A DNA stretch of 64,000 bases. Source: Chloroflexota bacterium (GTDB lineage: Bacteria > Chloroflexota > UBA11872). The notes under the pieces are model-generated. The model saw only the letters and a list, made by a program, of their open reading frames with translations, was not told where the DNA came from and made no database searches. Positions within the stretch are counted from its first letter, which is position 1; each line of letters starts with the position of its first letter. The stretch spans positions 2,379,226-2,443,225 of the forward strand of contig OY764080.1 of assembly GCA_963667925.1 (NCBI GenBank), read 5' to 3'. Shown here in pieces: positions 9,560 to 64,000 of this stretch. The translations under genes and the position numbers were made by a program.

Positions 9560-9610
9560 TGCCTGGCTCCAGCGGCTCTATACAAACACCGCCCAAGCCA
9601 CACGCGACCT

Positions 9611-9642
9611 TAGCATATTTAGCGAAATTTGCGGAAGTTCAA
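9611..9642 (-). promoter_or_regulatory. Candidate sigma70-like promoter (minus strand TTGAAC ... TAAATA/TATGCT) in the locally AT-rich ggt / yhaO intergenic region
   Basis: Hexamer inspection only. The region is markedly AT-richer than its flanks. Confidence 0.25.
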
Positions 9643-9698
9643 CCCTTTTATGGGAAGGGGCTGCAATCTCGCATTTTGGCGATTTTCCAGGAATACAC

Positions 9699-11300
9699 CT
9701 AGACGCCGATGGCGTAGCCGTCCCGACGTGGGTCGGCGCCTCCCTGGAGCGCGCCGGTCGCGGGGTTGCGGCTGGCGCCCTGCATGCCGCCGACGGCCAT
9801 GGTCCAGGGGTCGGTGGCTTCGGCGCCGTGGCCTCGGGCAGCCAGATCGTCAATCACGCTCTGGTCGATACGAGATTCGACAAGCACCAGGTCGCCATCC
9901 ATCAGCCGCATGCGCGGTGCTTCGATGGCGGCCTGCACGTCCAGCCCAAAGTCCACGTGCTGCACCAGGGCCTGCGGCTGGGTCTGGCAAATGCCGTAGC
10001 TGCCGGGCGTGCCCAGCGCCAAGACCGGCTCGCCATCGCGCAGGGTGATGGTGGGGGCAATTGGCAACGAGAGCGGGGCGCCCGGGTATAGGTGATTCGG
10101 GCTCAGCGGGTTCAGATCGCCCCACCGAAGCAAATCGTTGGTCAGCACGCCATGCCCCTGGACCACAATGCCCGAGCCGAACCCGGCGCCGAGGCTTTGG
10201 GTCAGACACACGGCGTTGCCTTCGGCGTCCATCACCGAGAACGAGGTGGTGTGCTCCAGCATGGGATCGGGCTTTGAGCCAGGCGCCGGCGCGGCTCCGA
10301 TCTGCTCCGTGGGACCGCTGATGGCCTCGGGCGAGTCCAGCAGACCGCGCAGCCGATCCAGATTCTCGTCCCCCAGGATTTCTTCGACGATCTCGATAGG
10401 CGCGTTGGCGTGGCGGAAGCGTACTTGGGATGACAGCCGAATGGCTCGGATGATCGCGTCCAGATGCTCCGCGCCATTTCGCTCGAGGGCCCCGATGTCC
10501 AGATGACTCACGAGGCCCAGCGTCATCAGCATCTGAAAGCCCTCGGACGGCGGCGGTGCGCCATTGACTTCCAGGTCGCGGTACGCGATTCGGATCGGGT
10601 CTTGCCAGCGCGCTTCCACGGCGGCCAGGTCTTCCATGGAGAGTGCCCCGCCGAGCGCCTGAATTTCATTGACCAAGGCCTGGCCCAGGGCACCGTGATA
10701 CAGGTAGTCGGGCCCCTCGCTGACCAGGGCCTCGTAGGTGTCGGCCAGGTCGTGCTGATGCAGCATCCAGCCGGCGCCCGGTTCTTCATCGTTGTCCAGG
10801 AAGATTTCCGACCAGCCGGGGAAGATCTCCGCGATGTCGTTCAGGCGGCCGCCGATCATGTGGGCGTTGCCTTCGCTGACGGGGAAGCCGCCGCGTGCAA
10901 GCTCAATGGCGTCGGCGAAGAGCTCGGCCGTCGTGCGCGTGCCGTACGTGTCCAGCAGCTTCATCCAGCCAGCGAGACTGGCCGGCGGGCCCACGCCGTG
11001 CGGACCGCGGGTCAGGTCGTCGTAGCGTCGCGCGATGGAATCGAACTTGAGCGGTACGGCCGGCGTGAAGTCCAAACAACGCACGCGGCGCTCGGCAGCC
11101 ACGTAGACCATGGCCGTGCCCATGCCGGCCAGCCCCGACATGTATGGCTCAACCACATCGAGCGCGGCTGCGGTGGCGACAGCGGCGTCAAATGCGTTGC
11201 CGCCGTTGGACAGGATGCGAGCGCCTGCCTGCGCCGCGAGAGGATGGGCCGCCGCGACTACGCCTCGGCGGGAGGTGACGCTTGGCCGCCGTCCAAACAT
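9699..11300 (-). CDS. ggt: Gamma-glutamyltranspeptidase
   Basis: GGT-family N-terminus (AAHPLAAQAGARIL..GGNAFDAAVA) and the catalytic Thr region TTSFSVMDAEGNAV; 533 aa. Confidence 0.9.
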   Translation of the reverse strand: MFGRRPSVTSRRGVVAAAHPLAAQAGARILSNGGNAFDAAVATAAALDVVEPYMSGLAGMGTAMVYVAAERRVRCLDFTPAVPLKFDSIARRYDDLTRGPHGVGPPASLAGWMKLLDTYGTRTTAELFADAIELARGGFPVSEGNAHMIGGRLNDIAEIFPGWSEIFLDNDEEPGAGWMLHQHDLADTYEALVSEGPDYLYHGALGQALVNEIQALGGALSMEDLAAVEARWQDPIRIAYRDLEVNGAPPPSEGFQMLMTLGLVSHLDIGALERNGAEHLDAIIRAIRLSSQVRFRHANAPIEIVEEILGDENLDRLRGLLDSPEAISGPTEQIGAAPAPGSKPDPMLEHTTSFSVMDAEGNAVCLTQSLGAGFGSGIVVQGHGVLTNDLLRWGDLNPLSPNHLYPGAPLSLPIAPTITLRDGEPVLALGTPGSYGICQTQPQALVQHVDFGLDVQAAIEAPRMRLMDGDLVLVESRIDQSVIDDLAARGHGAEATDPWTMAVGGMQGASRNPATGALQGGADPRRDGYAIGV

Positions 11301-62249: not shown

Positions 62250-62505
62250 GGACAAGGCGCTAGGCTCGACTACGCTGTTGGCTCAGGTTTCTCCAGAAGT
62301 CGGGATTCAGACGGGCGACGGCGCTGACCGCATGATTCCAGGCGCACCGCGATCAGAGCGTTGACGACGAGCTGACCGACTGCCTGGTTTGCTGGCATCA
62401 CTCAAATGACCATGCGCTTTCGCTCATAAAACGCACATAACACGTCGATGCTTGACAATGGCTGGCCTTCAAGGCAATGTATCGGCAATTCGAAAAGGAG
62501 CAACA

Positions 62506-62598
62506 ATGACCCATCAAAGAGCATGCTTATTAGTAATGTATCATGATACTTACACTCAATCATACACGACCACAATAGAAGATCTTAGGCACTGCTAA
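62506..62598 (+). CDS. Candidate 30-codon leader/small ORF (MTHQRACLLVMYHDTYTQSYTTTIEDLRHC) with strong SD, rare TTA-TTA codons, and TAATG coupling to the downstream gene
   Basis: SD AAAAGGAG 5 nt upstream of the ATG at 62506. Stop TAA (62596-62598) overlaps the ATG at 62598. Codon usage is extremely AT-rich for this genome. Confidence 0.4.
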   Translation: MTHQRACLLVMYHDTYTQSYTTTIEDLRHC

Positions 62599-63899
62599 TG
62601 CTACGCAAAAGGATAGGCAATCAGGCGCATCGGAATGGTGGTGTGCAGTTGGGGGAGGCTCGGGCTATGACGGAGACGTTGAGAATGCGCGAACAGCGAC
62701 GGTCAACAGTTTGGGAACGAGTCCGGCTTGGGCTGGCGGCCGTTGCCGCGGCCAGCCTGACGATTGCGGGGCCAGTGACCGCGTTGCGGGCGCTGGACTG
62801 TGTGGGCATACCCATCAGCGACGGCTGCCTGTTTGCCAACACCGGCGGCGACACGCCTGATCCGAACGACGGGTATGCCGTGACCAACGCCGATAGCGTC
62901 CCGATGTGGGACTTCGTACGCGAGGCTGAGGCTGAGGCCATTGGATACCCGATCAGTCAGCGCTGGCTGGACGGACCGTTCACGCTGCAGGCATTCCAGA
63001 AGGTGATTCTGCAGTGGGACCCGGCCAACGCACGGATGAACTACTACAACACGCTGGACGTGTTGGCCAACCGCTACCCGCACATCGAGCTGCCCAACGT
63101 GCCGGCGCACCAGGTGCTGGCGGCGGACGTAGGCGCGGACTTCGAGACGGTCAAGCAGAACCACCTCGCGATCCTGGATGAGAACCCCGGAATCAAGGCG
63201 CGGTTCCTTGGCGAACCGGACTGGCTCAACCTGTACGGGCTGCCGATTCGGTACGAGGAACGGGAAGTCGATGGCAATCCGCAGGGACTGCAACTGCTGC
63301 GCGCGCAGCGGGCCGTGTTCGCGGTCTGGAACGTGCCAGCGCCCGGGACGACCCCTGGCGAGGTAGTGCTTCAGAACCTTCCGGACAAGGTAAAGCAACT
63401 GAGCAACGTGATTGTTCCCGACGCGACCGAGGCGCCCCTGACGCCCGGGCAGCTGAACGCATTTGAGCCGCAGCAGATACACCGACGCTCCGATGAGGAC
63501 GAGGGCAGCGGCGACGACGAGCGTGCGGTCGACGACCCGCCCGGGACGGACAACGACGGCTTTGACACGACCGCCAATACCGACCACGACGGCTTCGATA
63601 CCACCGCCAATACCGATCACGATGGTTTGGACACGACGGCCAACACCGACAATGACGGAGTCGACACCACCGCGAACACCGATCACGATGGTTTCGACAC
63701 CACCGCCAATACCGACCACGACGGCTTTGATACCACGGCCAACACTGACTACGACGGATTCGACACGACGGCCAACACCGACCACGACGGTTTCGACACC
63801 ACCGCGAATACCGACCATGACGGCTTCGACACCACAGGCAATGAGAACGAGGACACCGACGACACTGCTGAGGACGACAGCGAAGACGACAGCGATTAG
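62598..63899 (+). CDS. Secreted protein with C-terminal acidic tandem repeats (9 x DHDGFDTTANT) and Asp/Glu-rich tail
   Basis: Signal-peptide-like LGLAAVAAASLTIAGPVTALRA; N-terminal domain of unknown function; 11-aa repeats with an EF-hand/DxDxDG-like N-x-D-x-D-G core. An alternative start is the ATG at 62667. Confidence 0.6.
   Translation: MLRKRIGNQAHRNGGVQLGEARAMTETLRMREQRRSTVWERVRLGLAAVAAASLTIAGPVTALRALDCVGIPISDGCLFANTGGDTPDPNDGYAVTNADSVPMWDFVREAEAEAIGYPISQRWLDGPFTLQAFQKVILQWDPANARMNYYNTLDVLANRYPHIELPNVPAHQVLAADVGADFETVKQNHLAILDENPGIKARFLGEPDWLNLYGLPIRYEEREVDGNPQGLQLLRAQRAVFAVWNVPAPGTTPGEVVLQNLPDKVKQLSNVIVPDATEAPLTPGQLNAFEPQQIHRRSDEDEGSGDDERAVDDPPGTDNDGFDTTANTDHDGFDTTANTDHDGLDTTANTDNDGVDTTANTDHDGFDTTANTDHDGFDTTANTDYDGFDTTANTDHDGFDTTANTDHDGFDTTGNENEDTDDTAEDDSEDDSD
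63547..63843. repeat. Tandem 33-bp coding repeat x9 (ACCGACCACGACGGCTTCGACACCACCGCCAAT consensus)
   Basis: Read directly from the sequence; copies differ at a few synonymous or conservative positions. Confidence 0.9.
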
Positions 63900-64000
63900 G
63901 CGGTGACCGTCTCCAAGGTGACCTCCGTGGCGCTTGCACCCCGGATCGATTTCCCCGCCGATCGCGGAGTTCGGGCACTGCAGCGACTGTTCGACGGCGC

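Follow-up and report, generated by a model that had tools for sequence, protein, structure and literature searches.

What an AT-rich patch does in front of the gene of a secreted protein in an otherwise GC-rich chromosome is the question raised by a 64,000-nt stretch of DNA from a Chloroflexota bacterium (UBA11872; GenBank assembly GCA_963667925.1, contig OY764080.1, positions 2,379,226 to 2,443,225, forward strand). The whole of this stretch is called the window here, and all positions are counted from its first letter. The AT-rich island (62390-62650, unstranded) precedes, on the plus strand, the open reading frame (ORF) of a secreted protein with acidic repeats (62667-63899). The patch is probably the promoter and translated leader of the secreted-protein gene. 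The reading favoured here, to which a probability of roughly 55% is given, is that a 30-codon leader ORF inside the island, uORF1 (upstream ORF 1), is coupled to the gene by termination-reinitiation, and that this would work independently of the peptide encoded.

The GC content of the island was ~41% overall and ~38-47% in windows of 120 nt. Over 62400-62599 it was 41.5%, compared with 65.5% across the whole window; a preliminary description of the locus had recognized the low-GC island correctly and had set the background at ~68%, which is too high. The island was the only place in the 64 kb where 120-nt windows fell below 48% GC, save one window starting at 9581; this window (9581-9700) was a single point at 47.5% GC. 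In orthologous loci a GC dip to 0.37-0.50 was found at the equivalent place.

The Shine-Dalgarno (SD) sequence of the leader, AAAAGGAG (62493-62500, plus strand), ends 5 nt before the ATG at 62506. From this ATG, uORF1 runs over 30 codons and a TAA stop (62506-62598, plus strand) and encodes the peptide MTHQRACLLVMYHDTYTQSYTTTIEDLRHC. The stop codon (62596-62598) shares one nucleotide with a second ATG at 62598, and the resulting TAATG junction (62596-62600, plus strand) is followed by a stretch of 23 codons that shares the frame of the main ORF (62598-62666, plus strand). The SD sequence of the main start, GGGGGAGG (62651-62658, plus strand), lies within this stretch, ahead of the main ATG at 62667. 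The leader SD, the ATG at 62506, the 30-codon ORF, the TAA/ATG overlap at 62598 and an upstream TTGACA hexamer had all been pointed out in the preliminary description, and each of them was present where it had been placed.

Upstream DNA was aligned from the orthologues of 15 non-redundant Chloroflexota lineages of metagenome-assembled genomes (MAGs) that carry the leader; single loci are referred to by L numbers. The architecture common to the 15 lineages comprises a TTGACA promoter, an SD and start, an ORF of ~30 codons whose stop overlaps or directly adjoins a second ATG, the 23-codon stretch, and a strong SD with the usual start (ATG 62667). An (A)GGAGC-like sequence 5-9 nt ahead of the leader start was conserved together with the start in 10 lineages. 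In the window and in L001, L038, L020, L029, L034, L035, L036 and L040, uORF1 extended exactly from -161 to -68 relative to the main ATG and had 30 codons; L002/L004 had the same extent and length with a GTG start. Counted by lineage, this exact placement and length held for 8 of the 15, and 4 others had a modified form. Other lengths were 29 codons in L037, 34 codons in L030 (1-nt deletion) and 25 codons in L033, the last two being frameshifted forms. In L039 (1340-1484) the TAA was lost, the sequence at this point reading GCTAT and not GCTAA, and a 48-codon ORF ended 17 nt before the main ATG; the two upstream ORFs were fused into one in this locus.

The leader accompanied the gene both behind an ABC-2 permease gene, which is the upstream neighbour in the window, and behind a ferritin gene. 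A search with a leader profile found it at orthologues only, and at none of the paralogues (L007-L027, which were also inspected) or the distant orthologues L028 and L031. A metagenome scan yielded a single locus with a leader identical to that of the window. Conservation in orthologues had been named beforehand as a test of the leader, and its absence from syntenic relatives as the objection to be feared. The leader ORF and the TAATG junction are kept in these relatives, so this objection fails, and it is reasonable to read the leader ORF as coupled. The peptide and its TTA codons, on the other hand, are not kept, which points to an ordinary ribosome-relay leader and not to a rare-codon switch.

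The leader frame was maintained open. Over nine indel-free lineages it contained no stop codon, compared with 18 and 25 stop codons in the other two frames; a single shuffled leader keeps the frame open with a probability of 0.14-0.26. The orthologous 30-codon ORF was annotated by an independent gene caller in L036. Among the ORFs on the minus strand of the leader, no frame was conserved as open.

The peptide, by contrast, was not maintained. Pairwise differences by codon position were 0.447, 0.501 and 0.414, with no excess at third positions and no period-3 signal, and amino-acid identity was 27% in the uORF1 frame versus 29% and 37% in the other two frames. The ratios of synonymous to non-synonymous changes among the changed codons of uORF1 were 0:3 (window versus L001), 2:15 (window versus L029) and 2:13 (L020 versus L034); across comparisons, synonymous changes in the uORF1 span numbered 0-4 and non-synonymous ones 3-18. 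No coding signature of the peptide was obtained from codon-position rates, BLOSUM scores by frame, identity by frame or counts of synonymous and non-synonymous changes. Judged by these comparisons, the uORF1 peptide is free of purifying selection. Since the architecture is kept without conservation of the peptide, what selection appears to preserve is where the ORF starts and stops, how long it is and that it stays open, and not its product.

The TAATG junction was present in 9 of the 15 lineages. In L002/4, L003, L005/6 and L035 an ATG lies instead 6-9 nt upstream of the junction, and in L002/4, L003 and L035 it forms an ATGnnTAA overlap with the 3' end of the leader ORF. A protein begun at the ATG of 62598 would open with MLRKRIGNQAHR.... 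From the second ATG, the ORF continues in frame as part of the main ORF in 9 lineages; in 4 others (L002, L003, L005 and L033) it ends 0-21 nt short of the main ATG. The 23-codon stretch may thus be an N-terminal extension, giving a long isoform, or a relay uORF. Its ratios of synonymous to non-synonymous changes (3:2, 5:7 and 3:4) were close to those of main-ORF codons 1-15, unlike the ratios of uORF1. At the main start, GGGAGGC (-15 to -9) was conserved in nearly all lineages and absent in L037; a GCGAACA box near -47 was a further conserved landmark of the leader alignment.

Most homologues were called with their initial Met at the equivalent of ATG 62667, and 4 of 14 were extended to the Met at ATG 62598. 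The preliminary description had let the downstream ORF begin at ATG 62598; the ATG and the coupling site are there, but the start that most relatives use is ATG 62667. L037 has neither the internal SD nor the internal ATG, so that the protein can start only at the ATG of TAATG in this lineage. It is plausible from the alignment that ATG 62598 is the genuine start of a long isoform, and the architecture can be read as successive initiation events, putatively coupled, of which the last takes place at or beyond ATG 62667.

The promoter was recognized by the hexamer TTGACA (62452-62457, plus strand), a -35 element conserved as TTGAC(A/G) near -215 from the main ATG in the leader-carrying lineages. 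It is followed by a weak -10-like region (62473-62480, plus strand), which can be read as GGCAAT with a 15-nt spacer or as CAATGT with a 17-nt spacer. The CAAT core is conserved, and in the alignment a CAAT-containing -10-like hexamer stands 15-18 nt past TTGAC(A/G). Homologous promoter sites reached 10/12 in a consensus scan, namely TTGACA-N16-TACGAT in L030 and TTGACA-N16-GACAAT in L035.

The following course of events would account for this arrangement. Transcription would begin near 62485 from TTGACA and the weak -10 region. Ribosomes would load at the leader SD and ATG 62506 and translate the 30-codon ORF, for which the start, the open frame, the length and the stop position would count and the peptide would not. 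Termination would take place at the UAA within UAAUG (62596-62600), and AUG 62598 would be the point of reinitiation. Translation from there would give an N-terminally extended protein or, in the lineages with a stop, cover a second short ORF that reaches the main SD and ATG 62667 or falls just short of them. As a ribosome relay, the leader ORF would make expression of the main gene depend on translation in progress, and ribosomes covering the AT-rich, weakly folding leader of ~180 nt could plausibly protect the transcript from premature termination or decay. From the comparison of sequences we infer translation of the ORF, reinitiation, the direction of the regulatory effect, the site of transcription start and the protection of the transcript. 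The leader-coupled translational control proposed in the preliminary description is retained here as far as the conserved coupled leader ORF is concerned, and is given up for the specific device of TTA or rare codons.

Leaders of this kind are known from other bacteria. For Mycobacterium tuberculosis, D'Halluin et al. (bioRxiv 10.1101/2022.06.01.494293) described uORFs whose overlap with the following ORF is 1 nt (URRUG) or 4 nt (NUGA); termination-reinitiation is their proposed mode of action, and suppression of Rho-dependent termination a proposed effect. The leader described here resembles them as a short uORF in a 5' leader with a 1-nt overlap (UAAUG, i.e. URRUG) in a GC-rich host, in the next start having little or no canonical SD, and in the proposed tight coupling that protects the transcript. 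The features that define the class were found in uORF1 as well: a ribosome-binding site of its own, the 1-nt overlap, and a maintained reading frame (0 versus 18 and 25 stop codons). It differs in what follows the uORF, namely an optional N-terminal extension or relay in front of a second start with a strong SD. The leader is, moreover, conspicuously AT-rich and of fixed length, and the host is an uncultured Chloroflexota bacterium in which the system is known from sequence alone and a part of Rho would be conjectural. Translationally coupled uORFs were also validated in Sinorhizobium meliloti by eGFP reporter fusions and mutations (Dietz et al. 2026, PMC13285730). There, as proposed here, an upstream SD and start define the uORF, whose translation drives the main ORF through overlap or coupling; the evidence is experimental in S. 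meliloti and comparative in the present case.

The most conserved element of the leader, however, is not explained by the relay alone. It is a palindrome of 14 bp, TTAGGCACTGCTAA (TTAG-N6-CTAA; 62585-62598, unstranded), which spans codons 27-30 of uORF1 and its stop codon and appears in the leader alignment as a nearly invariant TTAGGCnnnnCTAA at -82 to -69 from the main ATG. TTAG and CTA were invariant even in L030, L005 and L039, where the reading frame across them differs or the TAA has gone. In the window, TTAG-N6-CTAA had a single match, with 0.13 expected. With up to one mismatch, the motif occurred 5.75 times per kb in these leaders, 5.0 times per kb in those of the ferritin genes and 0.02 times per kb in the other 375 kb of the sequence analysed. 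The sites in the ferritin leaders clustered at -112, -91 and -43, and 9 of ~17 non-training hits of a position weight matrix scan fell into ferritin leaders, in either orientation. The leader profile matched the ferritin leader of L039 with E = 2e-5; the exact TTAGGCGTTGCTAA occurs there, and this leader holds two exact copies of the motif 23 nt apart. Kept outside the frame and present in ferritin leaders that have no conserved uORF, the motif is regarded as an element in its own right. It is possibly an operator, or a protein-binding site on the RNA, shared by the secreted-protein gene and the ferritin gene.

A second, degenerate palindrome, TAAG-N6-CTTA, was observed at 62517-62530 of the window (AAAGAGCATGCTTA), 68 nt upstream of the main motif. 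It was exact in L033 and L037 (TAAGC-N4-GCTTA), and L032 had the compensatory form TAAAC/GTTTA; the covariation was not significant.

Several points weigh against the coupled leader ORF. There are almost no indels across ~190 nt at ~55% identity, and the length of the ORF is fixed at 30 codons, although a relay uORF should tolerate indels of 3n nucleotides; this argues for a constraint beyond the relay. TTAG-N6-CTAA occurs also in ferritin leaders outside any uORF context, so that conservation of the stop/start region is not explained by coupling alone. Three lineages (L032, L003 and L005) carry the motif without a clear start of uORF1. The main start owns a strong, conserved SD, and coupling may therefore be unneeded for expression. 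The C>G skew typical of Rho loading sites was not conserved among the leaders, which leaves an involvement of Rho without specific support. In the window itself, the poor -10 fails the consensus scan, the spacer being one base short. Finally, both the translation of the leader and its transcription start are features that we infer from the alignment.

In L032 (2819-2941) the promoter, the motif and the second SD were kept, and a start codon of the leader ORF was missing.

Of the other explanations, control at the DNA level survives best. The AT-rich leader would then be mainly a platform for a putative regulator of TTAG-N6-CTAA, with the ORF secondary or tolerated; such control could also coexist with the relay. 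The invariance of TTAG and CTA across all lineages irrespective of the leader frame, the enrichment of the motif in both kinds of leader, the matrix hits and the profile match in L039 speak in its favour, as does the strictly indel-free leader. Conservation also showed a weak periodicity of ~11.5 nt, significant under naive permutation and marginal under a run-preserving null (P = 0.017 in the band, 0.06 globally), for which reason no claim is based on it. The stop-free frame and the conserved SD, ATG and TAATG are left unexplained by such control, though; the site lies ~100 nt downstream of the presumed transcription start, and the window holds one copy of the motif. As the main function of the leader, it is considered unlikely, but it deserves more credit than the explanations that follow. 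It is more doubtful still that both functions are joined, with a putative regulator on the palindrome at the stop/start junction gating the hand-over of ribosomes, or the passage of RNA polymerase, into the acidic repeat protein.

Known operators were compared with the palindrome. The CIRCE consensus is TTAGCACTC-N9-GAGTGCTAA, and the consensus of the DtxR/IdeR iron box is TTAGGTTAGGCTAACCTAA. Both share with the leader site the outer TTAG(C/G) and (G)CTAA, the leader site standing downstream of the promoter, and the association with ferritin would fit an iron regulator. A CIRCE/HrcA operator was rejected, as the window held no match to the 9-bp inverted arms TTAGCACTC and GAGTGCTAA with a 9-nt spacer and up to 3 mismatches, and the element has only 14 bp. 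The 19-bp DtxR/IdeR box, a palindrome with outer arms TTAGG and CCTAA, was rejected likewise: the bases 3' of CTAA (TGCTA, CTCTT, TGTTG and others) were unconserved, and ~11 of 19 positions matched the consensus.

The ferritin gene that shares the motif codes for a protein of 162 aa (PF00210); in many relatives it separates the ABC-2 permease gene from the secreted-protein gene, and its promoter is of the canonical form TTGACA-N17/18-TAnnnT. Its conserved leader of ~135 nt contains TTAGCAGG and one or two TTAG-N6-CTA(A) sites, and was found upstream of ferritin in L030 (2083-2285), L039 (485-687), L032, L033, L035, L036 and L002-L006. The ferritin leaders had no Rfam match and no conserved uORF, and RNAalifold applied to 8 of them gave only a stem of 3-4 bp. 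The gene is missing in the window, L001, L020, L029, L034 and L040, and a tblastn search of the 62250-62450 region of the window found no ferritin remnant. In L037 the gene is interrupted by an in-frame stop after 30 codons and counts as a pseudogene.

Dependence on rare codons, which the preliminary description had favoured, fares worse. According to this proposal the rare codons of the leader (TTA-TTA, AGG and ATA) slow the ribosomes and tie expression to a scarce tRNA, as in bldA control. The two TTA codons are codons 8 and 9 of uORF1 (62527-62532, plus strand; read directly from the sequence). That TTA is rare was borne out: it made up 13 of 15,479 codons in the 43 long ORFs of the window with high GC content at third codon positions (GC3), i.e. 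0.84 per 1000, or 1% of the Leu codons. GC3 was 0.37 in the leader and 0.69-0.92 in genes, and 6-15 of the ~30 leader codons in every lineage were rarer than 5 per 1000 in the genes of the window. In addition, AGG stands in frame at codon 28 in all standard-frame lineages except L035, and the AT-richness of the leader is maintained in GC-rich genomes.

The comparison with relatives decides against the proposal. In L001, the nearest relative (97% protein identity), the TTA pair is replaced by TTC TTC; the leaders of L020 and L034 have no TTA, and elsewhere TTA occurs at codons 4, 6, 7, 8, 9 and 11. Summed over 11 leaders, TTA was found 13 times in frame and 10 times in each of the other frames. 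In base-composition shuffles of the leader, a post-hoc test, at least two in-frame TTA codons occurred in 14% and an adjacent pair in 1.3%. About a third of the leader codons are rare in every lineage because the leader is AT-rich, and the conserved AGG sits in the nucleotide motif, which is kept even where it is read in another frame (L030 and L005). TTA is present in nine ordinary long ORFs of the window, and the tRNA scan found no tRNA genes in its 64 kb. Control by TTA codons through bldA belongs to Streptomyces, where TTA is a rare codon in a GC-rich genome. The likeness consists in the rare TTA, the GC-rich genome and the regulatory position; here the codon is unconserved in the nearest relative, its frequency in the leader is what base composition predicts, and the host belongs to another phylum and is no actinomycete. 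Taken together, the in-frame TTA codons are, on the composition of these leaders, a by-product of AT-richness, and a bldA-like control is judged improbable.

A structured cis-regulatory RNA in the 5' untranslated region, such as a riboswitch, a thermometer or an attenuator, was suggested by the long, conserved leader of fixed length and by small inverted repeats: AAG...CTT near 62517-62528, GTATC..GATAC at 62538-62549, and TTAG..CTAA. The terminator-like hairpin of L035 and the strongly folded leader of L032 (z-score of the minimum free energy (MFE) -3.1) fit this suggestion as well. However, no Rfam family matched the leader at E <=10, and scans of three orthologous loci at E <=1 gave chance matches only. 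RNAalifold applied to 12 leaders returned only the invariant 4-bp TTAG/CTAA stem without covariation, a manual model of two helices or two hairpins was no better than shuffles, and in a scan for palindrome centres TTAG/CTAA alone was consistent. The MFE z-scores of the window leader were +1.1 and +0.5, i.e. it folds slightly worse than shuffled sequences, and the mean over 13 lineages was ~0; its AT-richness explains why the leader folds weakly. A search for terminators in the window leader found none. This explanation is largely refuted, and very little weight is left to it.

In L035, the hairpin CGTACCGTTGTACG (2854-2877), followed by a T-rich tail, lies in the leader ORF of this one lineage. 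The unusually stable leader of L032, which has no start for the leader ORF, may be an alternative, structure-based solution.

Leader peptides of the tnaC type and attenuators are the comparison system of Escherichia coli. Common to them and the present leader is a short leader ORF with the stop region as its most conserved part; here a conserved peptide, a run of regulatory codons, a terminator/antiterminator and a conserved C-rich Rho loading site are missing. A ribosome-mediated attenuator of the trpL/hisL type was rejected, as neither a conserved codon run nor a terminator nor conserved alternative hairpins were found.

Equally hard to uphold is a product with a function of its own, be it a small protein or a SecM/TnaC-type arrest peptide, to which the conserved length, the recurrence of Tyr12, Tyr20 and Arg28 in several lineages and the gene call in L036 might point: identity in frame is below that of the wrong frames, third codon positions show no excess of substitutions, the closest pairs differ mostly by non-synonymous changes, and there was no Pfam match. 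Arrest peptides of the SecM/TnaC/MifM type were rejected also for the lack of a conserved amino-acid arrest motif, nearly all changes being non-synonymous.

The protein downstream of the coupled leader ORF comprises, from the conserved ATG (62667-63899, plus strand), a signal peptide, an N-terminal domain of ~260 aa without a known family, and acidic 11-aa repeats. More than 200 homologues were found, all of them in uncultured Chloroflexi/Chloroflexota MAGs. A 97%-identical copy is present in OZ242271.1, a Chloroflexota chromosome, and ~80%-identical orthologues occur in other MAGs. The N-terminal domain is common to the more than 200 Chloroflexota MAG proteins, where the C-termini joined to it are of the LRR, RCC1-like or beta-propeller kind; in the present protein the C-terminus consists of a variable number of the acidic 11-aa repeats NTDHDGFDTTA. 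Searches of Pfam, NCBIfam and PDB with the protein gave nothing meaningful, and an AlphaFold model based on 15 close sequences was unusable (mean predicted local distance difference test score 32).

A gene for a phosphotransferase of the APH family (407 aa; PF01636) begins at 63903, 3' of the secreted-protein gene. The gap between the two genes is 3-6 nt in almost every orthologous locus that reaches that far and 45 nt in L031. The short gap across these loci suggests that the genes for the secreted protein and the APH-family phosphotransferase form an operon.

The analysis corrects the gene model, which now has two candidate starts, 62598 and 62667, and it removes a tempting story of rare codons. 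Translated leaders coupled by stop and start codons are documented mainly in cultured proteobacteria and mycobacteria, and they are here extended, on comparative grounds, to uncultured, sponge-associated Chloroflexota. The signature of a leader whose frame, length and junction are kept while its peptide drifts is usable for finding such leaders in metagenomes. TTAG-N6-CTAA links the secreted-protein gene to ferritin and offers a testable lead to the putative regulator. If such a regulator acted at the stop/start junction, this would point to a small regulon of metal or iron storage in sponge-associated Chloroflexota and to a new combination of an operator with termination-reinitiation.

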